Made by a program: the position numbers and the translations under genes
Notes under the pieces: generated by a model
Databases searched by the model: none
Seen by the model: the letters and a program-made list of their open reading frames with translations, nothing else
What the model was told of the DNA's origin: nothing
Source of the DNA: Marsupella aquatica
Taxonomy: Eukaryota > Plantae > Marchantiophyta
Direction: 5' to 3'
Assembly: GCA_973895155.1 (NCBI GenBank)
Contig: OZ316895.1
Coordinates: forward strand, 13,379,186 to 13,443,185
DNA: 64,000 nucleotides
Part shown: positions 26,648 to 64,000 of the stretch, one piece after another
Layout: each line of letters starts with the position of its first letter
Numbering within the stretch: position 1 is the stretch's first letter

Positions 26648-26835
26648 ATGATGTCTGCTCCATCACTCGTTCAACAATGGCGGACTTGAGTCGAAGTGGG
26701 GGTTTTGGCAGAAGTGCTGTCCCGTCCATCGTTCGTTGAACAATGTCGGAATTGAGTCGAAGTGCGTTTTTGGTAGACATGATGTCTCCTCCATCGTTCG
26801 TTGAACAATGGGAGACTTGAGTTGACTTGCGTTTT
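26648..26835. repeat. Degenerate tandem repeat, ~65-bp unit x3
   Basis: Recurrent ccatcgttcgttgaacaatg..gacttgagtcga core upstream of MED28. Confidence 0.65.
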
Positions 26836-31500: not shown

Positions 31501-32013
31501 CAATGCGGAGCTCCAAAGGGTCTATGTTCTGAAGAGAAAAGCACCCATAGAGCAACGGGCCCACAGCTTGACAGCCCCCTGATGTGTTGTGTTGTGGTGT
31601 GCTGACTGGTCTAAAGTACTTGACAAGCTGGCCTCCATCCCTGCCTCATGCGCCTGCGGACGCCTGTGCTGAAGAAAACAGAGCAATTTGGAATTTACGA
31701 ATTTATCTTCAGCAGACCTGTGTCCAGAACTACTGTACCTGTAAAGAGGAAGAAGAAATTGGCTCACTCTGGTTCCCTCTCCTTCAATTCCGTTCACCAT
31801 TCGTCTGCAAGTCCTACTTCACATTGACAAATTGTCGTCCCTTTCATCTGTATCTGTTTCTTTCGGTTTGGGCCCCTTCCTTGACGGTGAATCTCTCTAA
31901 TGATTCATTCGTATGAACTTTTCTGATAGCAACCGATCTCTGGAGAACTCCCCCGCTCTTGGGTCTTGGAGTCTACCTCTCTTCGGGATTTCTTTCTGAG
32001 GAGAGGAGGCAGG

Positions 32014-35000: not shown

Positions 35001-38000
35001 GTATCAGACATTAAACTGGTGTTGGTAGAAAGTGGGGATGCATCGTCTGTAGCAAAGGAAGGGGATAAGCTTGAAACGCTGGGAGGAACCAAAGAGGTGG
35101 TTACTCCAGCTTCTGAAGGAGACAAAGAGGGAAAAGGTGGCAATGGATCTGAATGGCTGAAAAGGGTTCCATCTGTTTCTGTACCATCTTTGCCTTCCTA
35201 TGTCCCTTTTGGTCAGGTGGGCATCTATGTGTACCTCATAGTTTAATTTTCAACTTTTATCCCATGTTCCTTGTGCATTGTTCCTCGTCAGGTAGTGTTC
35301 CAGTGTGGAATCTGCATTCCATACGACTATGGCCATGGCAGGGAAGGTAGGAACCAGCTGTGGATGGTTTGAAAGATCTCCCAGTGAATATTTAGGCAGT
35401 CTCAGAAGCTCGCAATTCGTGCTTTAATTTTTTCTGTTGGTTTAAGCGTTGCTGCTGTATCTTACATCCTATCATGCTGCAGCTCTATTTGCTGGAGAGA
35501 TCATCAATTGTACCCTTGTCTGCATCAGAGTACACTCAGCTAACCTCTGTAAGTATTTTTTTCCTGATCTTCAATCTCAGGGATTCTCATGCAAAGCAAC
35601 AGCTTGTAATGGGTTTTTTGACGTTGCCATTTCTTCCTCCGGCCATTTTTCATTAACGTACTCCTTCCATATACTTTTTCCGGTCTGAATGTTGAGATGT
35701 AGTAATCATCTCTCATCCCCGACAAGGGGTTCCGAAATGTCAGAACGAACTTAATAATATATGGTCGTAGTACAAAGCTCATCTACTTCGAACGTTCCCA
35801 AACTGTGTTGAATATCTCAAAGAAAAATAGGTGAAGTGGCTTATGCTCTAGAGCAATAAGCTATATCTAAACCAAGACTCCATGGTCTATCAGTAGCAGC
35901 CTCTTCAGATCCTAATCTTATGTAACCTATATATCCTCAGGTGCAGTCAGTAATTCAGGAGGTGAAAGAGCGATTCCGTTCCCATACTATGCGATCATAT
36001 AGGGCCAGATTTTTGAGGTATGTCAAGATGTTTGTCTTTGTATATTTTACATATAGCTTAGACTATTTTTTCCATGATCTCACTTCCCCTTTTATCACCA
36101 GAATATAATTTGACAACTTTTTTCTGATGCTCTTGCTACAAGGCAGTGCTTGGGCTCAGATCAGAGTATGCGGTCAGGTCAGGTTTAGCAACCCTGGGTT
36201 TGGTGCTTGCATTTAAAACTGCTACATCTGGGAGAAATTACGAATGTCTTCTGGTCGTTGTTGCAGAATATACGATTCTTGCATGTCTGATAATTCAGCA
36301 TCACCATTGAAAATGGAGCACCTGCCACACTTGCCACATTTGCAGAATTGGCTGGGTGTACTAGGCGCTCGCATTGTCGAGTCAGGGATCATATCAGAGC
36401 CTATTGTACTACGGACAGCAACAGCATTGGTTCCCCTTGGCTGGACAGGGGCCCCAGGAGATAAGGGAGCAAAACCATTATTTGTCGATGTACATGGTTT
36501 TGGCCTTCATCTTTGTACACTAGTACGTGCACAAGTGAATGGACACTGGTAAATTTCTATCTCGTGAACAGAAGTCTGCTGCAGTGTCAGGACACTTACG
36601 TTGACCACAAAGCGCAATGAGACGTAGCATCTAGCAAAGTTAGTTGCAATGCATCTTTTCATTCTTGGTTTGCTACTGCACCACTTAGCTCCCCATGTTT
36701 GTTTTATGAATTGTGAACTTTCCATTCATTGGTCATCGCCTGGTTCATTTCTGAAGTTTGTTCCAAACTCTAGTGAATATTATTTTCTGGAGGTGGAAAA
36801 GTATTTTCTGACTTGCCAACGCGGTAGAGGAATCCGAGCATGTCCTGGATGACGCATGCCGACGGTGTCCCGATGATGTGCTGAGTTTACAACCATGGTC
36901 GACAGTTGCCCTTCGCGGGTTTGCTACTGTAGACCTTCTCATCCCAATATTTGGGCTAACAGATAATCACAAATAACATAAATGCCCCGCCTTTGTTTGC
37001 AGGTGCTCTACGACAATGGAATGCTTACCCCCTCCAGCTTTTCCTCAACAGGAACTACAACACGTTCAGCCTAAGTTGCAGAAGATGCGGATTCGTATTG
37101 GACCACCTCTTGAAAACAAAAACTCTCAAAAGAAATCAAACCCTGACGAGATTGTTTCCAAAGGTGTTCCCGTTGCCAATAGCTTGGGGAGTCCTGCAGT
37201 CAACGTAGAATTGGCTAATGTTGGCAGTAAAGATCTTGGTGTTTACGAAGTTGGGGGCCTGGGAGAGGTGACTATACAATGCAGTACCGACTTCATGACT
37301 GCATCTCAAAGCGTGGTCTCGAGATTACGACGTGTTCGTTTACTTGGATTAGAGGTCTGCACTCATTCCAGTTACCTCATCACTACGTATATTGGGCATT
37401 CGTTTGATTTTCCAACCCACTTGGGTTTGGCAGATTTGTAATTTAATTCTAAGTTGTGGGTCTGATATCTAAGCAGACATCTATTGTTGTTGTTCTGTAC
37501 CCAGGGTGCTGGGAAGACCTCATTGTATTTTGCATTGTTGGGAGAAGCCGGAAGGATTGTAAGCACTAGTGATGGAGGTGTGCTTCCAGACATAGATTTG
37601 AGAGAGGGTGTAACCACTGGCATTAATTATGTTGATGCTGCTGGAGTGAACTTGCAGGTGTGCCTCACTTTCCTACTTTTCCAGTTCATGGGCCTGTGAA
37701 TGCATCACTGTCGACAGCTTTCTGCCACTCCACAAGTTCATCATTTAGCGTTTCGTTGTTGAGTAGCTTGCCTGCTTTCGGTAGAACACTAGTAGGATTA
37801 CATTGTTATCTCATTATGATTCTCTGCCGAAGCTCCAGATGGGTCCAACTTTGTCGCTTAGGCAACAAGCCAATTTTTTGAAACTAGGTCTCCATACCGA
37901 TGTTGTTGGTTGGATGATGTAAATGGTCTCATGCGCTCACAATTGCAGGTTACCTGCCAGATGTCGTGAGCCTTATGTGTCAAGCTTGTTGTCTAAGAAA

Positions 38001-39135
38001 ACATTTACTTCGTGGTAATTTGCAGGACCTTGTGAATGAAACAGAGCGGCTAAGAGAGGAAGTTAGATTGAGCACTGGGCGTAGCGGAAAGAAGTTGGAT
38101 CTTATTATTCTTGTACATAATCTTGCACATAAGATCCCCCGCCTGCATAGCACTGACTCTAAGCAATCACGGCCTGCCTTGGGAGTGCTCCTGGATGAGG
38201 TTACCACAGCTGGAATTCCAGTGGTCCTGGCAATCACAAACAAGTTTGCTGTCAGTGCTGACCGTCGGCACCTTGCCGCCTTAACAATCATGAATACCTA
38301 TCAAGTTCCCCCGAGCTTGACGGTGGTTGTGAATTCATGTCCCTACAGTGTCCATGGATTATCAACTGAGTCCCTTGATTTCCTTGTTCCTGCACTAGAA
38401 GGCAGCAGCAAAGGATCGACTGGAAACGGACTTGTTCAAGGTGCGGCGCAACGGCTTTTCTTTGGACCAATGAGACTTGTCCCACGTCCATTTGGCAAGC
38501 GAGAGGTGGTGCTACCCACTGAAGGCATTAACAAGCTCACGTCTCTCATCCAAAATGTTTTAGCTGACAAAGAAGAGTCTGCTTTTGAGGTATGATTGCT
38601 CTTTGACATACAAATTAGGCAGTGTGTGTTCGTGGAGTTAAGTTGATGGAGAAAACATTCGTTTGCGTCCAAAGAGTACAGAGGAAATGTTGTAGCGTTT
38701 TTAACATTCAGCGTCTATAGCAAGAAAACTGTGGAGCAGATTCCTGTATAGATGGCTCATCACAGTTTAAGTTGGTGATTGGAGGTGTTGTTTGTGATTG
38801 TTGCTCTGTTTATTATCGGATGCAAGAAAATGGTTTAGTTACCATCTTTTTCATATTGTATCATCGAAGTTCGTAAGTCTGAAGAAGCTATCCAACTAAG
38901 AAGGCAAAACCAGTGCTGTGAGACCGACCTTGAGTTACTATTCCTTGCTGTGTAGGATCTTGCAAAGGAGCAGCTAGCACTTCAGAGTGCAGAGGACCTG
39001 GTCCAAAGTACAAGACAGTCCGCCGGAAAATCTGGGGCTGCAGCAGCAGCGGCAGTTGGAGCAGCATTTGGAGCTGGATTTGGAGTGTTTGTTGCGGTAG
39101 TTGTTGGTGCAGCAAATGCTCTTCGGAAACCATGA
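32014..39135 (+). CDS. Class 3 lipase family protein with C-terminal P-loop domain (At3g07400-like), multi-exon
   Basis: Motifs QIEDLC..VK..DLQDVLGAMVLAECAYK, DFGGQIISL, ADANILQG, LVLCGHSLGGA, CITFSQPPVGN, YCIPEDLIPRILSPAYF and P-loop GLE/GAGKTSL; ends ANALRKP* at 39133-39135. Start ATG could be 32014 or 32020. Confidence 0.88.
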
Positions 39136-43084: not shown

Positions 43085-44512
43085 TCAAGTTGGAATGCAT
43101 TCTACAAGATCGTTCAGTGCATTCTTGCTCACTCCGCCATCTCCTACAGCTGCTTCAGCCTTCCTCTTCAGCTCCTGAATTCTTGACCTTAGAACGTTTC
43201 CTTTCTCCGCCAGTAGAAACCGCACTACACTCTCCAATGTTTGAGGTTTATTTGGACCCGTAGAAAAATCTTGGGGTCTCACCTCGACCGCAATTTTTAG
43301 CACATCCACTATATACCTGCAATTTATAAACTGGTCATTATGCAACTGTGGCCAAGCTCCCATTGGTACCCCCGAGATTATGCTCTCTATGATTGAATTC
43401 CAGCCGCAATGAGTCAAAAAGCCTCCAATAGCAGAGTGTGCTAGGATTTGCAATTGTGGCACCCAATCACTGACAACCAGCCCTTTTCCTCTCGTTCGCG
43501 CTTCAAAATTCTGAGGAAGACCTCCCTCGCTTCCACTGGGAATCACCCACAGAAAACTTTGCCCACTAGCCTCCAGAGCTAGAGCCAAGTCCTTCATCTG
43601 CTGGGGGTTGAAATGAAATATGGTGCCGACGCAGACATAAACGACCGATTTGGGTGGTCGCCCATCAAGCCATTGCAACCAATCTGCTCCTGGGCTGACT
43701 GAAGTCGCCACAAAGGACCGATCCTTAAAGGTTGCAGGATTCGAAAGGGGCCCAACCAGAAATAATTTAGTGGCCTTCCCTCGATCTATCCAACTCTGTC
43801 GAATTGCGTCGATCTGTGGGGCTTCCAACTCGTAAAACGTGTTCACAATTACTCCATCGGCTTGTCCTATGGCAATTCCGAGGGAATTCACAAACTCTGC
43901 ACCGAGCCGAGAATTCGTCATCTCTCGAAATTGTAATGCTGGAAGACCTGATATTTTCATGAGGCCCTCGAACTCTCCTAACGACTTTTTTCCCCCTGGC
44001 TCCTCTTTCATGGTCAAAATGCCATCGGCAAACAGCTGAGAACATGCCTGCAGTGATCTAACAAAGATCGCTCCGCAGCTAAAAAACTGATAATAAGGAA
44101 TATTCAACTCGTTTGCTACATCTCTGGCCCACGTCAAAAACCTGTCGCCAATTATACAAGTAGGTCCAGGAAGTCCTGCCTTCTGGTCTTCCAACAACTT
44201 GTTCAAGATCGGCTGAAAGAGGTCTCTCGCTGAAGCCAGAAAGACTGTAATGGTCCTAATGTCCCCCGAGGTTCTAGGGGACCCAGAATCCTCGTAGGAA
44301 ACCAGATTGAAGTCAAGCTCTAGCACGTCGTCGAACGTGTTCAGAAAGGTGATGTGCTCTTCTAAAGCCACAAAAGTGACAGTGACACCTCGCTTAGCCA
44401 GCTCTACAGCAAGCCTGAATATCCCTGCAAAGTGGGCATGGAAGACCACTGGCAAAATCAGTGCATGTTTTTTAACCCTTTGGGACTTCTTCAAACAGCA
44501 GTCGGCATCCAT
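43085..44512 (-). CDS. Family 1 UDP-glycosyltransferase, intronless, 475 aa
   Basis: PSPG box WVPQLQILAHSAIGGFLTHCGWNSIIESIISGVPMGAWPQLHNDQ; also WLDGRPPKSVVYVCVGT, NTFYELE and PTCIIGD. Confidence 0.95.
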   Translation of the reverse strand: MDADCCLKKSQRVKKHALILPVVFHAHFAGIFRLAVELAKRGVTVTFVALEEHITFLNTFDDVLELDFNLVSYEDSGSPRTSGDIRTITVFLASARDLFQPILNKLLEDQKAGLPGPTCIIGDRFLTWARDVANELNIPYYQFFSCGAIFVRSLQACSQLFADGILTMKEEPGGKKSLGEFEGLMKISGLPALQFREMTNSRLGAEFVNSLGIAIGQADGVIVNTFYELEAPQIDAIRQSWIDRGKATKLFLVGPLSNPATFKDRSFVATSVSPGADWLQWLDGRPPKSVVYVCVGTIFHFNPQQMKDLALALEASGQSFLWVIPSGSEGGLPQNFEARTRGKGLVVSDWVPQLQILAHSAIGGFLTHCGWNSIIESIISGVPMGAWPQLHNDQFINCRYIVDVLKIAVEVRPQDFSTGPNKPQTLESVVRFLLAEKGNVLRSRIQELKRKAEAAVGDGGVSKNALNDLVECIPT

Positions 44513-45825
44513 TTTCAGGAATGTCTCTGGACCCCTTCTGCCTCTGCTCTTGTGGGCTGCTCAAGGCAGTTTCGCAATTCACGAAATTCCAGCTTCGTAA
44601 ACGTTCTCAGGATATAACTTCGTACGTGACGAGGGGATGATGGGGAACTAAAGCGCTGGCACAGTCAATCCTGTACATCTCGAAACCAAAAATCTCATCA
44701 TGTTCAGCATTCGAGGAAGACAAAGGCACTCGTGGTCTACATTACATTAGATTTCGACCCAATCTCTGTACATTGGCTTTCACCCTACACTCAATATTTC
44801 TCGTACGTGTCCCCTCCCAGTGAACTGCTTTGCCTGGGAAGCAATGTTTCATAAATGTTAAGCAGAAAAGGGCCAATTTACTGAAAGGGTCCAAAGGAGC
44901 ACAACGGAGTACAAGCAAAAGAAGTCCAGAGAGTACAAACACGAACTCAAACACGAAACTCAAAAAACTCAAAAGAAGAGGGCAAATGCAAACCCCAACA
45001 ACTTAGAAATCAATCCATAATACCCAAAAACACCGTTCCAACATTCCAATGAGTCTGTCTTTGGATGCTGAACCCGAGTGTGGGTCTTCTCAATCTCAGT
45101 TGATTTGCCTCAGTCCATGACACTCTTGTTACCGAATACCGCTCCTAATCCCTGTCTAATTGCTATATTTAGTGATTGTCATAGTGTACTGGATGGATTG
45201 GGGACGATCGGTGACACTTGATGACTACGGTCATGTACTAATTGACATGAGGTGGACCGTTGTCCTCTCCATCTTTCCATGGCAGTTGGAGATCGATCTA
45301 CTGGAAATACACTTCGAAAGCCATTTTTTAATTGGTCAACCAAGGTCGAGGGCCAAGGGCCCATCTCAGGTCAGTGGATCACTTTCCTCCATTTGAACCC
45401 TCCAAATTCGTTCTTTTCTCCGACCTCAAAATGGAGGAGGATTGTCAGGGACCATCACGGAGCGAGGGCGTGGCGGAGGAGCAGAGCGAGGCTATGGCTC
45501 GAGCACGGAAGGGGACCTGATTGCTTGTAGCTTGCTGATGCTGTTTTTCTGTGAGCTAGGCTGTGAGTATGCTGGCCGAGACATTTCCAGTGGAGAGTTT
45601 CTACGACAGCAATAGCCCACCTGCCGTGGTTCCAGCCGCCTTCCAGGAGCTTCGATGATCATACTGTAGGGAGCCCACAGTGGAGAATAGAGTAGTGGAT
45701 CTGCTCTGATGAGACCGGGAGAGGAGCTTCGATCGCAGACTGTGGCGGGCCCAGCCCATGCCCACTTTTGTAGAGCTTTTATGGTCGTCTGCGCGGTCTC
45801 CCTTCGCGATTCGAAGATTGTGAAT

Positions 45826-49568: not shown

Positions 49569-50266
49569 TTGTTTTTTCTTGCATTGATCAAACACTAATA
49601 TCTGTGTTTGTTTCTTGTTGAGAACATCATTGTTCCTGTTTGGGATTGAACTTGATAATGTGGATCAATGTGGTGCTAAAGATTTTGGAAGGAGCTTCCA
49701 TGGGGGTCCATAAATATCTAGTTAGTGGGGACCAGAATTTTAATCATGATCTATTTCTTGTGTAAACCTAGGTGGACTACTTTGTGTGAAGCACCAAGGT
49801 TGATTTTAGCAGATGTGATGAAGTCAGACAATGGAGGGTATGGGAATACCTCAGTCTGCAAGATGCAAGCTATCTATTTTTTGCTTTGCTCTTTTTTTGC
49901 CAAAGTCCCTACTGTAGGTTACTTTAGTATTAAAGCCAGGTAAGTCCAAAAAGAAATTTCAAAAGGTGCATTGTTCATGCACAACTATTCTCCTTGTTAT
50001 CTCATGACTTTATCCCCCATTTTGCTAGCATATTCCTCTTTAGCATAGTATCTTTTGGATATTTTTAGCCAGAAGCTTTATTCACTATCACAAGTGATGT
50101 ACAATCTCACATGGCACAGTCATGGACAAAGCAAAAGACATAGAGTAAAAGTAGGATCCCTCTCCCTCCCTCTCTCATCCCCCTGTCCTCATTGTTTGTG
50201 GATTTTCCAGTCGCATCATATAATTTAGAGAATTTATGTCTCTATGGGTTACTAAATATTCCAAAG

Positions 50267-50617
50267 TGTCATGCCGAGGGACAGTGCCGCTTGTGCACAT
50301 CGGCATGTCCCTCGCATGCCCGCTAGGTATGGTTAGGGCTAGTGTACTACTTGAGTTAGTGTCATGTTCTTGTAGCGAGTCTGGGCTGTTCTTGAGGTTT
50401 GTTAGTGTGACGCCTGGACCCGGTCCTACTTAGGGCATGTTTTTCTTTGCCGTTCTTCAGTTCTTCTTGAATCGCTGTGAGACAGTTTTTCAGAGGCTGC
50501 TCGTCGATTCCGTACACGGAATTCACACAGTGATTCGTTAGATGCTCCCGGCCGATCTTGGCATCTCGCCGGTTTTCGATTCATTTTCAGTACGTTTGTT
50601 TCTATCACGCCTTTTAT
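50267..50617 (+). repeat. Repeat A1 (351 bp), 5' terminal repeat
   Basis: Near-identical to 59491-59843 apart from a 2-bp indel and a small change near the 3' end. Confidence 0.95.
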
Positions 50618-50630
50618 TCAAGAAGAACTG
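50616..50630 (+). promoter_or_regulatory. Putative self-priming primer-binding site
   Basis: ATTCAAGAAGAACTG is the exact reverse complement of CAGTTCTTCTTGAAT at 50458-50472 inside repeat A; no TGG-type tRNA PBS follows A. Confidence 0.7.
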
Positions 50631-53600
50631 CCGAGTTAGCGGTGAGGAGAAGAAGTTTGCTCGTGGCAATTTCGACAATTTCTGGTGAAGCCATTGCAAT
50701 TTCTTCGACGGACATTGGAGTGACGAGTTAAAAGTTATGGGTTTATTGTGGTGTTATGTGTATACTTAAGTGTATACACATAACAAGGGACCCGGATTAT
50801 TATTTTCTGGCCGCAACTTGTTTCGCGACTTGCTGTTGTCGACTGCTGCATCGACGCCGACTTCAAAGGGCGCACCCACGCTCGCATTTTTAACGACCTC
50901 TTTGGGGCCCTTTTTCGTTTACCGGCCACTACTGCCTCGGCCACCGTGCGCCCCTTTTCTTTCGCCCTTTTTCGCCTTGCCAATCCTCGAAGTTCCTCCC
51001 TCCGTTTGTTTTCCTGCCTTTTTCTTCTCTCGGTATCTCGCAGGCTATGCGCATAGGGCATCGTGCCCTCCCACTGGCAGCATTTAATTAACGAGAGGAG
51101 GGGGAGCGAGTGCAAGCCGGGAGGAGGAGGCACAGAGGCTACGAAGCATTAAAGGGGGGGGAGTACATTCGACTCCCTCTCTCGGGACTCCTGCCAATCA
51201 CGAGGCCCAACTTACAGGGCATTAAAGGAGGGGAGGGGAGGGGAGTTCAATTCGAACTCCCTCACACGGTGACACAGGAGTCTTTTTGCAGGGCACGAAG
51301 CCCATCCAACAGCATTAAGGAGGGGGAAGCAACAGGAGGGCACGAGGCCCTATGAGGAATTAAAGAGGGGGGGAGTACTCGCGACTCCTCTCTCGGGAGT
51401 CACTCGCTGCCAGGGCACAAGGCCCAAAAGGGGGATAGGGGGAGCTCATAGTGGGGCACGAAGCCCTATGCAGGGCCCGAGCCATTAAGTTGTCACCTCG
51501 CCTCAGCCTCGCCTCGCCTCGCCCTGCAGCATAGGGTACCGTGCCTCCCGAGTGTGCGTACACCTGCTTCTTTCCGGCCTCTTTTTCTTCCAGGGAGCCC
51601 GACGATGTATCCACATTGGGCACTGACCGGTGCCCTTTATGTGTATACACAGACCCCTGTCACCGACCAGTGCCCTTTATGTGTATACACAGACCCCTGT
51701 CTATACACATAACGGAGGCCCCTTTTGACCATTTCCTCTTGTTTTCTTTCCATTCATTTTCTTGTGAGCATATTTTCGGCAGGGCCGGTCTACACATTTC
51801 TGCCTCGCAGTGTTGTTTCCTTTGTGGGTTACATTTCATAGCCTTGGGGTTGCCACACCTTTTTCTTGTCAGTTTCTTTCCTATTGGCACCCCGGGTGAG
51901 CATGCAGCATGTCAGCAGAGGAGCCGAGTCGTAGCAGCTCATCGCCACCGACACCCCGGTACCACTTACGGAGTGATCCATGACCGTTGGTGCCAATTTC
52001 ATTGGAGTCTCGGCAATTTCGACGACGTCCACAGACAGCAGCAGCACCCACACCACGCAATCCTCCTGCTACATTTGGCGGTCGCTTCACCACTACTCCG
52101 AAGCCTGCTATCACTTCATTGCCATTTACCCCTTCTACATCCGTGGTTGTTCCTGCTTCACCGACATATAGCATGGACGCCAGCCACTCATCTGGCCGCA
52201 TTGAACGCTTCAGCGGGCGGCCAGGCACTGTTTCTTTACGTGAGTTCAAATCCACTTTCTACACTATCGTTTACGAATTGGAGTTGAAGTACGGCAGCAA
52301 TTTCACAAATGCTTTTGCATTTAAGCAGCTAGCCAGGTATGTGCACCACGAGGCTTTGGATGTGTATGAGCAGCACTCTCAACGGCTGCTTGCTGTCACA
52401 CAATTGCCTAACCCTGCCTATGCCAGTGCAATTGCGGCTGCCTCACAATTGGCATTACAGAATGCCATTGCAGCCCATGCTGCTGCTCCTGCCACTTCCC
52501 CTCCTACTCCAGTTCCTACCACTGCGCCAGTTACTCCCACTATCTTGGCACAGGCTACATCAGGCATTTCTCCCACCATTGATTCCCCTGCCTTTGTTGA
52601 TCCAATGGCTGAGTTTTTCCAGGTTCTTGAATTGGAATTCCCAATCAAGAGTGCTGACAAAATCATGCAGTTGGCGACCTTTGTGAGGCAGCGCGATGAA
52701 ACCTTGAAGATGATGTATCGTCGGCTTCTTAAGCTGAAGGAGGACACCCAGAGCATCACTGACCTGGAAGCTGCTCATCGTTATCTTCGCGCATTGGAGG
52801 GCACACCAGCTCTCCATTCACAAGTGTTGCAGCAAGTATTCTCAGAGTTTGGAGACAGCTACACATTGCTCAATGTCTACGACACTGCTGAGAAACTTGA
52901 GTTGGCCCATGCACATTATGAGGCCAGTATTGAGCGTCCACCGCGATCTAGGTACCAGGCTGCTGCTCCTACAATGGCCACCCCTTCCCGTGTGCCACAG
53001 TATGCTTCCAAGACCAAACCAGCACATGCTGCTTTCATGCTGCCCTCTTGCAACTACTGTGGCAATCCTAATCACAAGGCTAATGAATGTGATATTGTTG
53101 CTGAGGACCTGTCTTGTGATTTTTGTGGGAAAGTGGGCCACTTGGAGGCAGTTTGTTTTGCCAAATTCCCAGAGAGGAAGCAGCTACGACAACAGGCCAC
53201 TCATCCTACTCCTGTTTCCACTCCCCCACCAGCTAGGAGGGCTCCTACTGCATCAGTTGCTCCTCCTTCCAGTGGCCAAGCAACCAGTGCCAACAAATTG
53301 CCCAAGCAGCCACAGAAGCCCCCAACTCAAAAGGAGGCTCACAACGCACAGGCAACTCAACTCCAGTCTCTAACTCATGAGGTTGAGTCCTTACGTGCCC
53401 AACTTGCCAACATCAAAGGCAAGTCCACTGCCTCTGCTGGTCCTTCTCAACCGGCTGGTCACGTGCAACCCATCCCTGGCCCAGGCACCGCTGACAGTTC
53501 AGCACCTCTACCCCGCTCTTTCTATGGCTTACCATTTGATGCTCATATGGGTGAGTGTGTGCTGTCCTCTGCTCCACAGCCTGGCCTTACAGCAGAATTT

Positions 53601-54999
53601 TCAGATTCATTCTGCCCTTCCTATTTTGCTTACCAGCAGGCCAGTGCTGCCTCCCGTATTGCTCCCACACGCCGCATTGTACAGGCTGATGGTCTTGCTG
53701 CCGGTCCTATGACTAGAGCCAAGGGAGCTCGGGCTATCATGCCCCAATCTTTTCAGCCACTCACACTTGCTGAAGAGCGCACCTTGTTGGCGAGGGGGGA
53801 GGGAGCTGCAGCTACATCCATTCCACCACCAGGTGCTGCTGACATTTCACAGGGAGTTGTTTCTCCTGAGCTGCTTGAGCATTTCACCTTCGGTATGGCA
53901 CAAAGGATTCTTACAACTCCACTTTTCAGTTGCCATGATTTACAGCTGGATGCTAGAGCTGTCCTCAGGGCGCTAGAGGGTTCACTGCATTCTTCATCAG
54001 CCCCTGTGACACCGGTTTTGGAGGTCCAATCTCATGTACATACTGGACCTTCTTCTTCTCCTTTACATGTTTCCACTGGTTTGGCTGCCCCAGTACCGAT
54101 TGCTGCTGATTGTGTGACCAGAGCTACACTTGATTCTGGTCATGCTGCTCCATCTTTCCTGGCTATGTTGTTGAGTGGAAAGACCGTGGACACTAACTCC
54201 CTTCACAAGGTACCTCATCATTTGCCGAGAGTGGTGCCTAGTGACAGGACTTCAGTTTCCACCACCATTGCCATTGTTGACAACAGGAATTCAGTGGTCA
54301 AGTTGGAGGGTCACACTCCTCAGGTGGTCATGCTAGACACAGGTGCTCAACCAGTGATATTGGGCATTCAGTTTGCCAAGAAGATGGGACTGTTGACTGA
54401 TCATTTACAGCAATCCAAGTGGCACATTCGGACTGCTAGTGGCACTGTGGAGGATGTGCTGGGTGAGAGTTCTACTTTACTCACTCTCACTTTTAATGGA
54501 GGTACAGATCAGGAATTGCATTTCCCAGTCAGATGTCTGGTTACCAATGCCACTACGTATGATGTGCTCATTGGCCAGGAGGCTTTGTTCCCACCAGGTT
54601 TTACCATTGACAACTGGCATGAGCATGCATACTACAGAGTTGATTGGCATAGTGATGGCTCACACTTGGGCTACATTCCACTTGATTTGCATGGTGCCCA
54701 TACACCTATGGCTCACCACTGTGTGTTGAAAGCAGTGCACACAGCTACCTATGTCAACCACCCATTGCAAGATTGGATTGAGGAGGATGACGATGAGGTG
54801 GCTGCTGCACATGCTGCTGCACGTATAGCAGCACTTTCCAGCAACGTGGATCATCAACCAGAGGTGGTACAACGGCTCCAAGCAGCCCATGGACCTTTGG
54901 TGGCTGCATTGCGCAAGTTTGAAGACCTTGGGCAGCACAATGGACAGCCAATAGCCCCAATCTTGAGCGCACCATTTACATGGACTCCTGCTCCGGATG

Positions 55000-55940
55000 G
55001 CCTTACATTGCTTGAGCTTTTTGGTGGCATTTCTACAGGCCTGGAAGCTCTCCTACAGTCTGGCATGGTGATGAAGCAGTACATCTATGTGGATATTGAT
55101 CCAGGTGCAAGGCAAGTGACTGAATCCCGTCTGCTGGAATTTTCAGAGCGATTTCCTCAGCAGTTCCCACACAGTGCATGGAAGTCTGCATTTTCTTTCT
55201 TTCCTTCAGATATCCAGCTTGTCCAGCACCGGCACTTAACCCTTCTTGGCTCCCTTGATTTGATCATAGCTGGTTGGGAATGCCAAGGGTTTTCAGCTGC
55301 TGGTCACGGTGCTGGACTTCATGATTCTCGTTCTGGCCTTTTCACAACATTGGCTCAGATTCTCACCTGGGCTCAATCCCTTTATCCTGCTGTTGGTTAT
55401 ATCATTGAGAATACTCCATCTCAGTTTGACCAGCGACCACAGGTCAAAGAGGATTTCAGTGTGGTCCAGCACTACTTGGGACCACCCCTTCTCATTGATG
55501 CAGTGCACTGTGGTTCTTATGCACATCGTCTTCGTAACTTTTGGACTAACCTTGCACCACCTTCCTTGTTGGAGTTAGCTCTTCACCACACATCCAGGGA
55601 CACTAACCTCACAGTGGACCAGATTTTGGATCCTGACAGTTCTTGCCAACCAGTTACACGGCAAGAGCTAGCACCTTGGTATCCAGCCAATACCATTGGA
55701 CAGCCCCGTGCTGCTTGGCCTACATTTGTGTCCTTTCCAGGTGCACATGCTTTTCAGGGTGATGGTCCTGGCCTGGTTTACCGACATTCTACCGGTACAT
55801 GGGATGAACCTAGTCCTGAGGAGAGAGAACGAGCTATGGGCTTCCAATCCAGTACTACAGGTCACACCCAGATCACCAGGCTGGCCAGGAATGCTTTACT
55901 TGGCAGGGTAATGGATCTCAATGCTCTCACTTGGCTTCTG
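55000..55940 (+). other. DNA cytosine-5 methyltransferase domain (DNMT3-like) within the retrotransposon polyprotein
   Basis: Motif I LLELFGGISTG, II YVDID, IV DLIIAGWECQGFS, V DSRSGLF, VI IIENT, VIII AHRLRNFWTNL, IX/X ERERAMGF...TRLARNALLGRVM. Confidence 0.88.
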
Positions 55941-58900
55941 GTCACTTGCATCCTTTTTCAGATGTCCATTCCTCCAGCATCAGGAGTTCCAGTTCTACCA
56001 CTCCATGGTGCTGCTACATGGCATCCAGACCAGGTGCACTTACCTTTGTCCAACACTCACCACTTCAGTCCCAGTGTTGGGGGGGAGGAGGTCCCTTGTA
56101 ATGTGGCTGACATTATTTCTGAGTTTCATGGTGTGGATCAGACCAGAGCAACAGATACAGCAGGCCTTGGAGAGGCCTCATCACCTTATCAGCAGCATGC
56201 TAGCAGCTTGGATAGTGGAGAGGCTAGCACTTCTGGCTCTTCAAGCACGAGTACATCAGGTCCTATTCCTAGTGTTGCGAACTACACATTTATCATGGGC
56301 AACCACTTGAGTAAAAGACAAAAGGACCAGCTGCTGAATTTGCTCCTCAAGCATGAGAATGTGTTTGCTTTCTCTATGAAGGACTTGGGTAAGTGCAAGA
56401 CTATGCAGTTCTCCATTGAGTTGGCTGATGAAACACCTATCTTCAGGCGGAGACACCGTTTGAGTAAGCATGAGTGGCAGTTGGTGGATGAGAGGTGCCA
56501 AGAGCTCTATGAAGCTGGTCTTATTCAGCCATCTACATCAGATTTTGCGGCAGCTACAGTGATGCCAGCAAAGAAGGATTCCAGTGGATTGTGGACAGAG
56601 AAGCGCATGTGTGGGGACTACAGGCCACTAAACCTGGTCACACCCCAGGACAGGTACCCCATGCCACGGCCAGAGGAGCTATTTGATAGCATTGGAGACT
56701 CAAACATCTTCACTCTTGTGGATCTAAGGCAAGGCTTTAACCAGATTTTGCTGCTTGCAAAGGACCGCAAGAAAACAACTTTCTATGGTAGTAACCAACT
56801 ATGGGAGTGGTTGGTGATGCCATTTGGCTTGAAGAATGCGCCCATATTCTTTCAAAGAGTCATGGACCAGGTTCTTCAAGGTGCTGAGTTTCTGAAATGC
56901 TACATTGATGATGTGTTGGTCCACAGCAAAGGATTTGACCAGCATCTACTTGACCTTGAGGAGCTATTCATGAGGCTTAAGAAGGTGAACCTAAAGATAC
57001 ACCCCAAGAAGTGTGAATTTGCTGTCAGATCAGTAGTATATCTTGGGCATCGCATTCTTCCAAATGGAACCATGGCTCACTGGGCCAAGGTGGTATCCAT
57101 CTTGGAAATGCCCACTCCTACCGATGTTCACACTTTGAGGAGTTTTATTGGGTTGTGCAATTACTACCGAATCTACATCAAAGATTTCAGTACCATTGCA
57201 CACCCATTGTATGCTTTGTTGAAAAAGAATGTGACTTGAACATGGAGTACAGATGCTGAGGCAGCATTTGCCACTTTGAAGGAGAAGCTCTCAGAATACC
57301 CGGTGTTGAGAAGACCTGATTTCAGCAAGGTCTTTGTGTTACACACAGATTGGAGTGCCCTTGGGATTGGTGCCATTCTGGGCCAGCATGATGAGGAAGG
57401 TAAAGAGTACGTCATTGCCTATGCATCCAGGAGCAACAATCAGGCAGAGAGTCATTATTCTTCTTATGAGGGTGAATGCCTTGCTGTTGTGTGGGCTGTC
57501 ATACATTATAGGCCCTACCTCTATGGGACCAGGTTTGTTCTCTACACCGATCACCAGCCCTTGAAGTGGTTGATGACCAACGACAAGCTTACTGGCAAGC
57601 TTGCTCGTTGGGCGCTCATACTCCAGGAGTATGATTTTGAGGTAATTCATAGGCCTGGTGTGACACATCAGAATGCTGACACTATGTCCCGCAGCCCTTT
57701 GATTACCTCTGATGATTCCTCAGATGCACGGCAAGATTTTGACCAGGCTTCCATCCTGCCTACATTTCATGCATCGACCTATCTTGCTTTGCTGCCATGC
57801 TATGTTGTTGACCAACCTGTGGTGGACATATGGGAGGACAGCGACACTCTGAGATTTCTGCAGCATGGGGAGTACCCCTCACATGTTACTGCTGCCCAGA
57901 GAGACCGAATTCAGCAAAGGTCCAAGCGCTACTTGTGGAAGGGAGATCATCTCGTGCGTTGCTTGCCAGACAGGGAAGTGGTGGTTCCACCTATTCATGA
58001 GAGGGTTGGCCTTATCCGTAAGGTACATTCTGAGCTTGGTCATTTTGGTGTTAAGAGGACTTACAGCCTCTTGGTCCCTCATTATCATTGGAGAGGCATG
58101 CATGGCCAGGTTCGAGATGTTATTGCCCGGTGTGAATAGTGTGATAGGGTGAGGACTTCCTTCACATCTCGACAACCCACACTTCATCCACTCCCTATTC
58201 AGGGCATGTTTTATCGTTGGTCATGTGATTTGGCTGGAGAATTACCCCTCACGTCTCGGGGTAATCTCTACATCATGATCATGATAGAGCATTTCTCCAA
58301 GTGGATAGAACTTGTGGCATTGCCGGATAAGACCTCCCATAGCACCAGCCAGGCATTCCTACAACAAGTTCTCAGCCGCTTTGGAGCTTGTGCAGAATGT
58401 CTCACTGACCAGGGCTCAGAGTTTAGAGGAGAGTTCCAGGAGCTGCTTGATCAGGCCCTCATTGATCATCGCCGGACATCACGAGATCACCCACAGGCAG
58501 ATGGCTTGGCAGAGCGCATGGTTCAGACATGCAAGAAGGGCCTTCGGAAGATCTGCCTCACCAAAAACAAGGAGGATTGGGACCTGGCCTTACCCTACAT
58601 TGCCATGGGGTATAGGATGTCCAGACATGCATCACTGTCTAACTTTTCTCCCTACTTCTTGTTGTTTGGTCGTCACCCAGTTCCACCTTCTGCTATTGCT
58701 TCTCACATGTTTCAAGTGGTGGACTTGGATTCAGTTGTGACTTGGTCTGATGTGATCTCTGAGAGGGCTGCCCTATTCAGGAGGGTTATGCCCATGGCCA
58801 TGGAGAATTTGGCCATTGCACAGCACAGGGACACACTGCGTTATGCACACACACGAGGGGGCACTTTTCAGCCCAAGGTCAGGAAGTTTGAAGTGGGAGA

Positions 58901-59120
58901 TTTTGTGTACTTGCAGCGGCAAGCTAACGACACCCTGGACACCTCTACCAGTCGCACTATTCTCAGGGTCAAAGCTATTCGACCGTCTGGAGTGCTAGAG
59001 TTACAAGGGGCAGATGGGCGCACAATTGCTGACAATGCCAAGAATTGCGCCCCTTGTCATCTGCCTAACCTGGATCCCACCATTGTGACTTCTACTTGGA
59101 TTCCACCTGTGGACTACCCT

Positions 59121-59255
59121 TGCAAAGTGTGTTTGCGAATTGATGATGCTGACCAGATGCTGCTGTGTGACAATTGCAATGGAGGGTACCATCTTTTCTG
59201 CCTTCGGCCTGAACTTACCCAGGTGCCAGAAGGGTTATGGTTTTGCCCTTCCTGT
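59121..59255 (+). other. PHD finger at the integrase C-terminus
   Basis: CKVC...MLLCDNCNGGYHLFCLRPELTQVPEGLWFCPSC (C4HC3). Confidence 0.92.
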
Positions 59256-59305
59256 GCTCCACGTGCTATCTGACTTTTCTTCAGGCCTCCTTTTGGCTGT
59301 GGTCT

Positions 59306-59312
59306 GGGGGGG
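59306..59312 (+). promoter_or_regulatory. Polypurine tract (G7)
   Basis: GGGGGGG directly abutting the start of repeat B1. Confidence 0.6.
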
Positions 59313-60019
59313 ATACAGAGGTTTACACCTCCACTACGTACATACCACCTCAGTTGCTTTTTCTTGGCACCTGTGAATGTGATTGGACTTTTTCTATGCA
59401 TGTTGGTTGCTAGCAACTTGCACATATGCATTGCCGGTGACTTGTATGTTTTTGATACACTATGGCTACGATACTATATGTCACGACAGCTGTCATGCCG
59501 AGGGACAGTGCCGCTTGTGCACATCGGCATGTCCCTCGCATGCCCGCTAGGTATGGTTAGGGCTAGTGTACTACTTGAGTTAGTGTCATGTTCTTGTAGC
59601 GAGTCTGGGCTGTTCTTGAGGTTTGTTAGTGTGACGCCTGGACCCGGTCCTACTTAGGGCATGTTTTTCTTTGCCGTTCTTCAGTTCTTCTTGAATCGCT
59701 GTGAGACAGAGTTTTTCAGAGGCTGCTCGTCGATTCCGTACACGGAATTCACACAGTGATTCGTTAGATGCTCCCGGCCGATCTTGGCATCTCGCCGGTT
59801 TTCGATTCGATTTTAGTACGTTTGTTTCTATCACGCCTTTTATATACAGAGGTTTACACCTCCACTACGTACATACCACCTCAGTTGCTTTTTCTTGGCA
59901 CCTGTGAATGTGATTGGACTTTTTCTATGCATGTTGGTTGCTAGCAGCTTGCACATATGCATTGCCGGTGACTTGTATGTTTTCGATACACTATGGCTAC
60001 GATACTATATGTCACGACA
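59313..60019 (+). repeat. 3' repeat block: B1 (59313-59488), GC, A2 (59491-59843), B2 (59844-60019)
   Basis: B1 and B2 are both 176 bp with 2 substitutions seen; A2 matches A1. Confidence 0.95.
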
Positions 60020-61224
60020 AAAGCCTTGAATCATGATCTACAGAATATGTCCACCACACATGGATGTGGTGGGCATCCATGTGTCCCTTGCAAACTTTGT
60101 TATGACACTAGATATGAACCATTAGATCATCATATTATTGCAATGCTACAGTAGATATTCATTTCTTTTTTTTCTCCTTTCTAGGTTTTTGTGGTTTGCA
60201 TCATTCTTTTGAGTTTAGTTTGTGTCCTCTCTAGACCTCTTTTGCTCTTACTCGAGTGGACTTTGGCTGGCTCCTCTTCATAAGTTGGTCCTTTTTCCTT
60301 CTTTGTGGTAAAAGAAAACCTGAGTGACAATGTCATGACAAACGAGAATCTACTGCTTTGCTAGAATCACTCATGAGGGAGGATCATCCCTGGACCAAGT
60401 TATGACAGTTGTGATTATTTGAAGGATAAAGAGAACTCTCCCATGCAAAACAAAAGAGGAGTTACTTCTGTAGTGGCGATTCAACAAAAAAGGTGTTTTG
60501 ATTCCTATTCATGCACAATGGGAGCAGTCATGAGGGCCTTTTTAGATTACCCTGCAGTCTTCCCCCAAACAAAGCACCATGGAATGTGTTCAAATAGTGG
60601 GCCACGGGGCACTCTATTTGAATAGTGGGCCTGGGGTGTTGTGTTCAAGTTTTGACTAATTATTTGTTTTGGTTTTTTGTACTTGCAGTGTTGTGTCCAA
60701 AAATTGCTGTTCTGATTGACTATGGGTATTGTGTTTGAATTTTGGAATTGCGAGATGAATTAACCTTGGCTGTAAGGAGTGTTTGAGTTCATGCAAGCTC
60801 TTTTACTTCCCCACATTACCTTACAAATCTGAAGTTTACTATTGTGACCTAGCAAAACACGTATGTGAAACATGCATATTTTTGTCAGGGAATAGTTCAG
60901 CATGTGATGTGTCTAAAATAACGTACTGACTCTTAAAAATTGCTCTAAATGGCCACATTATCAACTGAACATAATAGATATTGTAAACATAACTCTTTGC
61001 TTGCCCACCCCCCCCCCCCCCCACAAAAAAAAAAACAAAAAAAAAAACTTTTCTCAAAGTGACGATTTACTAGGGACCTTGATCATCAAAATTTGACAAC
61101 ACTGGAACTTGTCACACCATTCTAGGTAGTGTTAGAGTGTATCGTACTATCTAGATCCGTATGTTTGGTATGTATGCTATATGAGCCAATAAGGTTCTGT
61201 TAGGTTTGTGTGAGAGGGTACTTC

Positions 61225-61811
61225 TCACTTGTGAGACATTGAAAGGTCATCTTTCAATGTAATCTTGCTACAATCGGCACAACGATCCCGATCAACAATA
61301 CCCCATCGATCCCACACCGATCTGATCACACACGTATGTCAAGCCAACGCACCTTGCACTACTCAAGGAATCCACGTTACACAAGCGGAGCTCACAGCCA
61401 CCATAGCCACACTCAAGCTCCTGTTGAACTAAGACATCATTCGCAACGACCATACAACCATGACTTATTCCATGCACACGTAGTCGACACAATCTCTACG
61501 TGGTTCACCTCTTCTCCAAGGCTACGTCCACACGAACACTCAAGCTTTACTTCAAGAGTAAACGAACACACATGCTCTCCCTCTTCCTCAAGTTGCTCCG
61601 TTACAATGAGTAAGCACCACTCACCAGCGGCTTACACTAGCCCTGGTATATACAAGGTCACACACGACTAACCTAACCTCAGCTAAGACCCTAACTGTGG
61701 TTAGCCTAAGTGTCGTAACCTTTGAGTCACAAGACTAAGAGCAATCCTTAATAGCTCCTCTCTCTCCAAGGCTCAACATTGAAAGATGACCTTTCAATGC
61801 CTCACAAGTGA
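61225..61811. repeat. 36-bp inverted repeat pair flanking an LTR-like segment
   Basis: 61225-61260 and 61776-61811 are reverse complements with 1 mismatch; each arm contains the hairpin cattgaaag-N5-ctttcaatg. Confidence 0.75.
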
Positions 61812-64000
61812 AAGGCTGGACAGATTGTTGAGCAGGAAGGGACTGCTCAATCTACTGCTAAATAGCAATCATCGGCTATCTCTTCTACCCTACAAAGGGA
61901 AATATGGGATTTGGTGGAGAGTTGGGAACCACAGCTTGGCCCTAAGTTGATTGGGGAGGAGAGACGTTGCATGCATCGATTCCTGAAGAGTTACTGGAAT
62001 TGTTTTGCATTTAGCATGAAAGATTTGGGGACATTAAAGGGTCATGGTATTCAGATTGAATTGGCTAGTGATGCGCCAATCTTTCGTAGGCCATACCGTT
62101 ACAGTGACATGGAGAGAGCTCTGATTCAAAGTAGAACTCAAGATTTGTTGGAGGCTGGATTGGTGGAGATTTCATATGGGGAGTATGCATCTGCCACAGT
62201 GATGCCAGCCAAGAAGGATGTGCATGGCAATTACACAGATAGGCGCATGTGTGGTGATTACAGACCCATTAATCGCCAGACAAAATCTGATAGATATGCC
62301 ATGCCCACACCTGAGGAGATCTTTGATGCTGTGGGGCATGCAAAGGTTTTCAGTTCATTGGATCTGAGGGGTACCATCAGCTTCCAATTAGGCATGCTGA
62401 CAGGTCCAAGACAGCATTCTGGGGGATTGATTCTTATGGCAAAGATCGTTTATATCAGTGGTTATTCTTACCATTTGGGTTGAAGAATGCACCAGCTGAG
62501 TTCCAGAGAGTCATGGATCGAATCCTTGCAGGTTTGGATTTTGTCAGATATTATATTGATGATATTTTGGTCTATTCTTCTACCGTGGAAGAACATCAGC
62601 AACACTTGCAGATTGTGTTGGAGAGATTGAGAGCACATTGATGGGTTGAAGCTCCATCCTAGCAAGTGTAAGTTCTTCCAAGACCAGATTGAGTATTTGG
62701 GCCACACTATATACCCAGGGGGATTGGGTGTACAGCAGACTAAAGTGGAGGCCATTACACAGATTCCTTGTCCTACTGATGTGAGTAGAGTTTATGCATT
62801 CTTGGGATTGGCGAGCTACTACAGGAAGTATGTTAAAGGATTTAGCCAGCTTGCTAAACCTTTGACCATACTCACTAAGTTGGATCAGGAATGGATTTGG
62901 GGTAATGACCAGGAGCATGCCTTTCAGGAGTTGAAGCAAAGGTTGGCATCATCCCCTATTTTGAGAAGACCCATTTCAGGTAGACCATTTCAGCTACACA
63001 CTGATTGGAGTGGAGTAAGACTTGGAGTAGTGCTGACTCAGAAGGATGATGAGGGGAATGAGTTTGTTGTGGCTTATGCCAGTAGATCAAACAATTCAGT
63101 AGAGGCTAAGTATAGCTCGTATGAGGGAGAGTGTTTGGCAACAGTGTGGGCTGTTGCATACTTTCGTTGCTACTTGTTTGGTAACCCCTTCACCTTGATC
63201 ATTGATCATCAGCCTCTTAAGTGGTTAATGGAGTCTGACAAGCTTACAGGGAAGCTTGCACGATGGGCATTGTTGTTACAAGAGTATGATTTCCAGGTGG
63301 TGCATAGGCCTGGAAAAGTGAACTTGGATGCAGATGGATTAAGCCGCAATCCATGTACCAGTCAGCAGGATGAGAGTGGAGCCAGATAGCATGATGAGTC
63401 AGATAAGGAGATGGTGCCAGGATGGCATGCATCTGCCTTTCTTTGTTGGGTGCCAGCATACAGTGGATCTGTGGACTCTACCTCATTGGATGGAGTGGAT
63501 GATGAGTCTTTAGATGTGGATGTTGGTGAGGTAACTTCTGGACAACAAGATATTCACAATGATGTGAGAGTGTTGGAATATATGCGCAGTGGTTCTATTG
63601 TTGGCAATGTTGATGCCAAAGAACGTGACAGGGTTCTACAGAGAGCCAAGAGGTTTCGATGGGAGGGAAACCATCTTTTGAGAGTACTGCATGATGGTAG
63701 GGTGTTAATGGTACCAAAACCATCACAACGAGTACATTTGGTGCGACATGCACACGAGGAGTTGGGTCACTTTGGTGTGAAGTGCACTTATAGCTTGCTA
63801 CAGACACAGTATTGGTGGCGTGGTATGCACACTCATGTCCAACAGTTGATAGCTAAGTGTGTGGTATGTGATAGAGTGAGAGCATCATTTAATGCTCCCA
63901 CTCCCCAGTTGCACCCGTTGCCGATCATGGGTTTGGGATATCGTTGGAGTTTGGATTTTTCTGGTCCATTACCTCTTACCCAACGTCATAATCGGTATGT
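61812..64000 (+). mobile_element. Degenerate Ty3/Gypsy pol fragment (RT-RNaseH-IN), runs off the window end
   Basis: Motifs ASATVMPAKKD..RMCGDYRP, YIDD (~62552), YASRSNN..YSSYEGECLA and HEELGHFG..CVVC. Frameshifts near 62370 and ~62640, stop at 63387. Confidence 0.9.

Follow-up and report, generated by a model that had tools for sequence, protein, structure and literature searches.

A Gypsy retrotransposon with a DNMT3-type methyltransferase domain inside pol in the leafy liverwort Marsupella aquatica

The locus and the element

The window, a stretch of 64,000 nucleotides of contig OZ316895.1, holds host genes as well as mobile elements. The lipase class 3 family gene at 31930-38592 (+; PF01764 in homologues) belongs to the host, and its exon at 37984-38589 is 88% identical to a protein of Calypogeia fissa, 63% to one of Marchantia and 49% to one of the moss Ceratodon (42 matches). 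On the minus strand at 5316-9377, the translations suggest exons for an alpha/beta-hydrolase, an NB-ARC domain and LRRs, all oriented alike, which look like a hydrolase-type NLR immune receptor. The same strand carries ArsA/Get3-like ATPase exons at 12749-16367 and a single-exon UDP-glycosyltransferase-like ORF at 43088-44560. Short degenerate tandem repeats occur at 26637-26832 (3 x 65 nt) and 30073-30198 (2 x 63 nt).

A complete Gypsy element of 9.75 kb occupies 50267-60019 (Table 1). It starts with TGTCATG and finishes with CACGACA (TGTCRTG/CAYGACA ends), and AAAG on each side forms a 4-bp target duplication. The domains follow the order gag-PR-DNMT-RT-RH-IN-PHD in a single frame interrupted by two stops; the open frame 51984-57239 comprises 1751 codons, with the first ATG at 52173. 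Because of the two stops neither RNase H nor integrase can be made by this copy in one frame, and it is a complete but now dead Gypsy-DNMT3 element. A canonical LTR retrotransposon has two whole flanking LTRs; here these are missing although TG..CA ends and a target duplication are present. Instead, the repeats are laid out as A1-internal-B1-gc-A2-B2, with A alone at the 5' end and B-A-B at the 3' end. A1 and A2 differ by three substitutions and one 2-nt indel and B1 and B2 by two substitutions; as both pairs are nearly identical (about 99%), the insertion is young. The two stops and the split repeats, together with the GWECQ motif, the self-complementary primer site and the PHD finger described below, are additional to the preliminary description of this DNA.

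Table 1. Features of the Gypsy-DNMT3 element in the window
Feature	Position	Strand	Basis or remark
Left target-site duplication AAAG	50263-50266	+	Same 4 bases after right end; chance ~0.004
Repeat A1, begins TGTCATG, left element end	50267-50617	+	351 nt
Predicted self-primer, inferred RNA 5' end	50458-50472	+	Perfectly reverse-complementary to 50616-50630 (15 nt)
Predicted primer-binding site directly 3' of A1	50616-50630	+	Complementarity to 50458-50472
Long leader, GC-rich degenerate repeats and hairpins	50631-52172	+	Sequence
Gag region, two CCHC knuckles (about 53049-53156), low-complexity linker	52173-54296	+	Translation
Aspartic protease (LDTG)	54297-54587	+	PF13975 E 1.8e-6
DNMT3-type C5 cytosine methyltransferase domain	54996-55964	+	PF00145, DNMT3A matches, AlphaFold model, 49-row alignment
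Motif I	near 55020	+	DNMT domain
Catalytic Cys	55281	+	DNMT domain
Motif VI Glu	55407	+	DNMT domain
Motif VIII Arg	55527 and 55533	+	DNMT domain
Motif X	near 55902	+	DNMT domain
Reverse transcriptase (YIDD)	56424-57200	+	PF00078 (RVT_1) E 2.8e-27
In-frame stop between RT and RNase H	57237-57239	+	Translation
RNase H	57243-57632	+	PF17917 E 3.8e-39
Integrase zinc-binding domain	57990-58136	+	PF17921 E 9.3e-11
Second in-frame stop	58137-58139	+	Translation; private to this copy in runs X1 and X2
DDE integrase core	58212-58700	+	PF00665 E 1.5e-13; 34 residues second D to E
PHD finger at integrase C-terminus	59121-59255	+	PF00628 E 5.1e-12
Polypurine tract G7 directly 5' of B1	59306-59312	+	Sequence
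Repeat B1, ends CACGACA	59313-59488	+	176 nt
2-nt GC spacer, joint CACGACA-GC-TGTCATG, predicted integrase attachment site	59489-59490	+	Sequence; function inferred
Repeat A2; A2/B2 joint TTTTAT|ATACAG, predicted cDNA end-to-end junction	59491-59843	+	
Repeat B2, ends CACGACA, right element end	59844-60019	+	
Right target-site duplication AAAG	60020-60023	+	Sequence

The gag region (52173-54296) gave no Pfam gag match and the leader (50631-52172) no Rfam match at E<=0.1. Other sequencing runs cover the leader far more thinly than the coding region, and between copies it shows numerous indels and skips. Tyrosine recombinase families were absent from three scanned pieces of the main frame, in which rve, H2C2 and PHD were found. 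No chromodomain was detected on the integrase, a PHD finger standing in its place, and the D-to-E spacing of 34 recurs in 123 of 129 family proteins. An origin of the integrase from IS481/IS3 was considered but found no support, as the NCBIfam match (E 4e-18) is far below the cut-off and Ty3 integrase is the best solved match (E 2e-11).

Downstream of the main element, at 61866-64000 (+), lies a second, frameshifted Gypsy pol of the PHD lineage; its RT piece groups with the family rows and its RNase H is 66% identical to that of the main element. No DNMT match was found upstream of this second pol or between its RNase H and integrase, and it may be truncated or DNMT-less. Just upstream of it, at 61226-61810, an element of ~585 bp is probably a MITE; its terminal inverted repeats are 34 bp long with one mismatch and begin CACTTGTGAG, and no clear target duplication was seen.

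Contigs of 4 of 13 sequencing runs were aligned to the element, X1 and X2 being the two closest. Summed contig depth, which is no copy number, is about 20,000-83,000 over the coding region in X2 against 86 for a piece of the right flank, and this excess points to a high-copy family with hundreds of copies. The DNMT bins are about as deep as the RT bins in both runs (74,000-130,000 and 109,000-117,000, respectively, in X1), which makes the domain a typical feature of the family. At the second stop (58137-58139), all depth of X1 and X2 reads otherwise. The window copy shows 633 differences from the runs in all; 40 are listed, 27 of them in the coding region, and the first stop is not one of the 40. 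In this small, selected sample, 18 of the 27 are C-to-T or G-to-A in the window copy, in contexts of 1 CG, 8 CHG and 9 CHH.

The methyltransferase domain and its lineage

The preliminary description had claimed an in-frame C5 methyltransferase domain between protease and RT, with its motifs in canonical order, and both the HMM search and structure prediction bear this out. In the pol frame, PF00145 (DNA_methylase) scores 26.2 bits, above the Pfam cut-off of 22, and 54996-55964 alone gives E 5.8e-7. Among solved structures the top sequence match is DNMT3A (E 2.4e-7), with M.HhaI behind (6e-3). The AlphaFold model, based on a 49-row alignment, has a pLDDT of 96.8 and a pTM of 0.93; a structure search with it returned DNMT3A first (6f57, E 2.6e-19, TM 0.75/0.85), and the matches shown are DNMT3A/B/C throughout. 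A search of the ESM Atlas with the domain gave PF00145 clusters only, one of them streptophyte. Two of the DNMT3 signatures named earlier, AHRLRNFWTNL/AHRARYFWGNL and ERERAMGF..TRLARNALLGR/EMERVFGF..SRLARQRLLGR, are reproduced in the alignments to DNMT3A; of the third, a pairing of LELFGGISTG with DNMT3A motif I, what stands is that the string is present in the window's translation. Collectively, these results confirm that the domain is real, has the DNMT3 fold and is part of pol.

Motif numbering and catalytic roles are those generally established for C5 methyltransferases. Motifs I, IV, VI, VIII and X follow in canonical, non-permuted order, which sets the domain apart from the circularly permuted DRM type, and the FxG motif is present. 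Motif IV of the window's copy reads GWECQ, with Glu replacing the usual Pro before the catalytic Cys. Of the 49 aligned rows, 27 have Glu at this position and 20 have Pro, making Glu a family trait. The catalytic Cys is kept in 48 of 49 rows, the motif VI Glu in all 49 and the two motif VIII arginines in 49 and 47, and this conservation of the catalytic residues extends across homologues at 33-71% identity. Judging from these residues, the DNMT is probably catalytically active in intact copies. With host DNMT3 the domain shares the catalytic fold (TM 0.75-0.85 to DNMT3A), but it is only ~21% identical to DNMT3A in the structural alignment, has no introns or companion domains and is fused into pol. 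The placement as DNMT3-type, which rests on the PDB matches and on the accessible part of PMC5890265, is likely.

Homologues of the domain are numerous: 254 cluster representatives at E<=1e-30, of which the best 150 are listed, and 60 matches among 7993 scored long proteins. Among 192 DNMT proteins, the order PR-DNMT-RT was found in 24 (named proteins from Marchantia, Closterium and Klebsormidium) and RH-DNMT-integrase in 92 (named proteins from Haematococcus, Monoraphidium, Scenedesmus and Pleodorina); in 27 the DNMT directly precedes the integrase and in 49 it stands alone. Vascular plants are absent from the named family matches, most matches carrying no name. One protein of Cymbomonas tetramitiformis (P0131), in which no RT was detected, has a DNMT 38% identical to the window's in front of an integrase and lies apart from the prokaryote-type outgroups in the DNMT tree; EpiLTR DNMTs have been reported for this species.

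This breadth bears on whether a host DNMT3 retrocopy was captured by chance in recent times and has since evolved neutrally. All three listed differences inside the DNMT domain alter an amino acid, as would be expected in a dead copy, yet the domain is in-frame, motif-complete and covered family-wide, and hundreds of diverged homologues in green algae and liverworts are fused to RT or integrase. Chance capture is thus extremely improbable and, judged from the protein sequences, appears already refuted; the earlier suggestion that the domain is no accident of one copy holds, given 254 cluster representatives with near-invariant catalytic residues.

The DNMT tree comprises 67 rows (the window and 21 first-order rows, 31 of 89 second-order rows, 6 unassigned rows and 8 prokaryote-type outgroups; host DNMT3, DRM and CMT are not included) and unites the window, Marchantia, Closterium and Klebsormidium in one clade with an SH-aLRT of 98. 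The RT-RH tree was built from 45 hand-picked rows and splits them, with support of 100/100, into 31 from the family and 14 from other Gypsy elements. Its 12 chlorophyte-type rows form a clade (100/99) beside Klebsormidium (98/97); a streptophyte clade was not rejected (p-AU 0.19). A 97-row RT tree agrees and places one unclassified Closterium row within the family. In the RT trees, which include no named Tf1 or Tcn1 row, the family is separate from the chromodomain-bearing rows. Mixed among the family are 28 clade rows without a DNMT in the called ORF, most probably truncated ORFs. Close relatives are 64-77% identical to the window's element in the DNMT, 71-76% in the protease and 68-71% in gag; RT is more conserved than DNMT, and that of the element shares 86% identity with a protein of Calypogeia fissa.

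A metagenome scan with one short motif found 79 loci, mostly prokaryotic-type methyltransferases, and two of the 79 (L001 and L002) belong to the family, both with RT-RH-DNMT order. L001 carries at 1400-7483 an intact 2027-aa chlorophyte-type ORF (RT-RH-DNMT-integrase-PHD) with an extra C-terminal extension of ~400 aa, and P0023 and other proteins end in a similar extension. Terminal repeats were searched for in L001 and none were found; L002 is a 2.4-kb internal piece. Scans of viral contigs gave zero family members, one scan yielding 79 loci with weak, phage-type matches, and a pattern scan of genome contigs gave two matches, both by chance in bacterial genes. As a solid addition, the protein sequences show that the Gypsy-DNMT3 lineage is also present in chlorophytes, where the domain lies between RNase H and integrase.

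The closest known system is KnitGypsy-Dnmt3 of Klebsormidium nitens, described as having DNMT3 in the pol ORF with Ka/Ks under 0.2 (de Mendoza et al. 2018, PMC5890265) and repeats arranged as in DIRS (its Fig. 4c legend). Like the window's element, it has DIRS-like repeats and, in a Gypsy pol, a DNMT3-type domain that is intronless and non-permuted. Two Klebsormidium proteins, P0164 and P0287, share with the window's element the DNMT between PR and RT and the same domain order overall, and are 36% identical to it over 327 columns; they are inferred to be KnitGypsy-Dnmt3 elements because the organism and the domain order agree. Given the same domain order, this identity, the same repeat layout and the shared RT and DNMT clades, the window's element almost certainly belongs to the KnitGypsy-Dnmt3 lineage. 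In contrast to the few copies reported for K. nitens in the accessible text of PMC5890265, the window's family is high-copy and young and its host is a land plant. Further, that text is silent on a PHD finger, a self-priming site, target duplication, a replication model and members in chlorophytes.

In the literature outside Repbase, theses and subscription journals, no land-plant or chlorophyte Gypsy-DNMT3 and no replication model were found. The accessible part of a preprint (10.64898/2026.05.21.726589) speaks of 'streptophytes (Gypsy-DNMT3)' with land plants not named, and that of PMC12344493 places DNMT retrotransposons in 'streptophytes and dinoflagellates'. The portions available of PMC11982613 and of an Isoetes preprint contain nothing relevant to Gypsy-DNMT3. 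The earlier remark that no characterised land-plant example was known is in line with that literature; the element shares its lineage with those of Klebsormidium, however, and is no separate case.

Element ends and a model of replication

The sequence 50616-50630 at the A1 boundary is the exact reverse complement (15 nt) of 50458-50472 inside A. In 20000 random placements across the window, a comparable boundary match of even 13 nt arose 18 times. The primer/site duplex is predicted at -20 kcal/mol, and when RNA from 50458 was folded with four end points, the duplex belonged to the best fold for two of them, with a probability of 0.95-1.0 in its core, against 0.03 and 0.3 for the others. The 13-bp core of the self-complement stops precisely where A2 joins B2, and G7 stops exactly at the start of B1. 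The A2|B2 joint brings the base that precedes the 13-nt primer site next to the one that follows the G tract. Read as TTTTAT|ATACAG, and in no other way, the A|B joint neither gains nor loses a base. A short inverted TG..CA motif is found at the element ends and at the inner B-gc-A joint and is absent at the ATACAG/TTTTAT ends; the internal CA-gc-TG joint matches the ends of the element.

From these features a terminal model was built on the one copy with ends. The RNA would start inside A1 near 50458; as in Tf1, pairing of its first ~13 bases with the site just 3' of A1 would then prime minus-strand synthesis. Strong-stop DNA would then jump to A2 and the plus strand would begin after G7, giving an ordinary linear cDNA with B-gc-A as its LTR. 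The cDNA ends, ATACAG and TTTTAT, lack TG/CA and would be joined into the A|B junction of a 2-LTR circle. Finally, the integrase would open this circle at CA-gc-TG in the upstream LTR, losing the 2-nt spacer and inserting with a 4-bp stagger; opening at that point would yield exactly A-internal-B-A-B with TG..CA ends. Self-priming of reverse transcription is, on the complementarity, a probable part of this model. Integration from a 2-LTR circle is an evenly balanced call. For retroviruses, a circle-junction model proposed in 1984 was displaced by the linear precursor (PMC11054761, in the part accessible). That linear DNA is the retroviral precursor counts against the circle model, and end joining would need to be efficient.

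Self-priming has precedents. Tf1/Sushi and Tcn1 likewise have a stretch in the 5' repeat that is complementary to a site just downstream, and no tRNA site, according to the accessible parts of PMC7175516 and PMC6317226. They differ from the window's element, which has a PHD finger rather than a chromodomain, an RT outside the chromodomain-bearing rows and split repeats rather than two whole LTRs. A green-algal Gypsy, Gypsy-7a_cRei of Chlamydomonas, also has a PHD finger in its polyprotein and subdivided LTRs; compared by description (PMC9940879, in part), it is unlike the window's element in having no methyltransferase in the figure legend and LTRs nearly complete at both ends.

The layout itself is shared with other elements. 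PAT-like, Ngaro and SymbioDIRS-Dnmt3 elements have the same split direct repeats, A-coding-B-A-B (PMC7192593 and the Fig. 1e legend of PMC5890265, both seen in part), and SymbioDIRS-Dnmt3 further carries DNMT3 in pol, which was shown to methylate CG in yeast. This identity of layout suggests an alternative in which the RNA carries a B-A-B block templating both ends, with a linear or circular DNA and no ligation of cDNA ends, as in DIRS, PAT or Ngaro. Such templating would explain the precise A|B joint more easily than end joining does, but it leaves the self-complement at the A1 boundary and the purine tract at the start of B1 unexplained. Further, the PAT, Ngaro and SymbioDIRS elements use a tyrosine recombinase, whereas the scanned frame contains none and the window's element has a Gypsy RT, a DDE integrase, TG..CA ends and a 4-bp target duplication. 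DIRS-like templating is therefore rather unlikely. Only one copy with ends was seen, so that the A-B-A-B layout could also be a post-insertion rearrangement of an ordinary two-LTR element; with the target duplication intact on both sides, A1 running straight into the primer site, the purine tract abutting B1 and the same layout reported for Klebsormidium (PMC5890265, in part), this is very improbable.

Possible roles of the DNMT and PHD finger, and significance

Methylation of the new cDNA inside the particle, which was proposed as the DNMT's role in the accessible part of PMC5890265, is likely to be the best candidate for the function of the domain. In the model, the DNMT would be packaged in pol, probably freed by the protease, and would methylate the cDNA; that cDNA is its main target is given an even chance. 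The coding region has a CpG observed/expected ratio of 0.28, against 0.45-0.62 in five host ORFs. CpG depletion was rejected as a sign of self-methylation, since the neighbouring related element without a visible DNMT equals it (0.27) and host methylation therefore suffices.

Alternatively, the DNMT may act elsewhere, on target chromatin, on its own integrated promoter or on RNA, or serve mainly as a DNA-binding module. Inclusion of the DNMT inside pol at two positions, which would put it in the particle with the cDNA, speaks against this, as do the catalytic residues, whose retention across diverged homologues argues for catalysis. In its favour are the self-methylation footprint, no larger than that of the neighbour, the CpGs retained in the repeats (observed/expected 1.02 in A and 0.86 in B), the replacement of Pro by Glu in the PC motif of 27 of 49 rows and the Klebsormidium domain, which gave no methylation in yeast, a result called inconclusive by its authors (PMC5890265, in part). 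A role away from cDNA is thus less probable, though a serious possibility.

The closest solved relatives of the PHD finger are those of CHD4, WSTF, KDM5, ATXR5 and BAZ2B. Most of these fingers bind H3 tails unmethylated at K4, and the element's finger is without the cage tryptophan of H3K4me3 readers. On both grounds it would guide integration towards chromatin in which H3K4 is unmethylated, and it is likely to direct insertions away from active promoters.

Taken together, the best explanation of the locus, which we regard as fairly probable, is a dead Gypsy-DNMT3 copy with a likely cDNA-methylating domain, self-primed reverse transcription and integration from a 2-LTR circle. The wider proposal is more tentative and a little short of an even chance: that Gypsy-DNMT3 may be an unrecognised Gypsy lineage as old as green plants, self-priming and joining the ends of its cDNA, with a DDE integrase that would open a 2-LTR circle at an attachment site inside the LTR and a DNMT3 relocated in pol between streptophytes and chlorophytes. 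It would then be a natural LTR retroelement with a circle as its productive precursor.

The methyltransferase-in-pol design is already known from Klebsormidium, and what is new here is a land-plant member, that is, an extension of range. This range now takes in chlorophytes as well as liverworts, including the genetically tractable model Marchantia polymorpha, and these members argue for an old green-plant lineage instead of a capture in the K. nitens lineage. The analysis further adds chlorophyte members with a relocated domain, the integrase-terminal PHD finger and the self-primer, polypurine and CA-gc-TG anatomy. Elements built in this way would be expected to escape LTR-finding pipelines that require both LTRs to be whole, and this may explain the absence of a name for the lineage in the plant LTR classification PMC6317226, in the accessible text of which 'PHD' and 'methyltransferase' are absent. 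The ends matter more than the range of the DNMT. If the circle reading is true, the substrate of an LTR retrotransposon integrase would be a circle junction that includes a 2-nt spacer, a route once proposed for retroviruses and later abandoned, and ordinary LTR reverse transcription would account for the split-repeat layout that the element has in common with the DIRS type.
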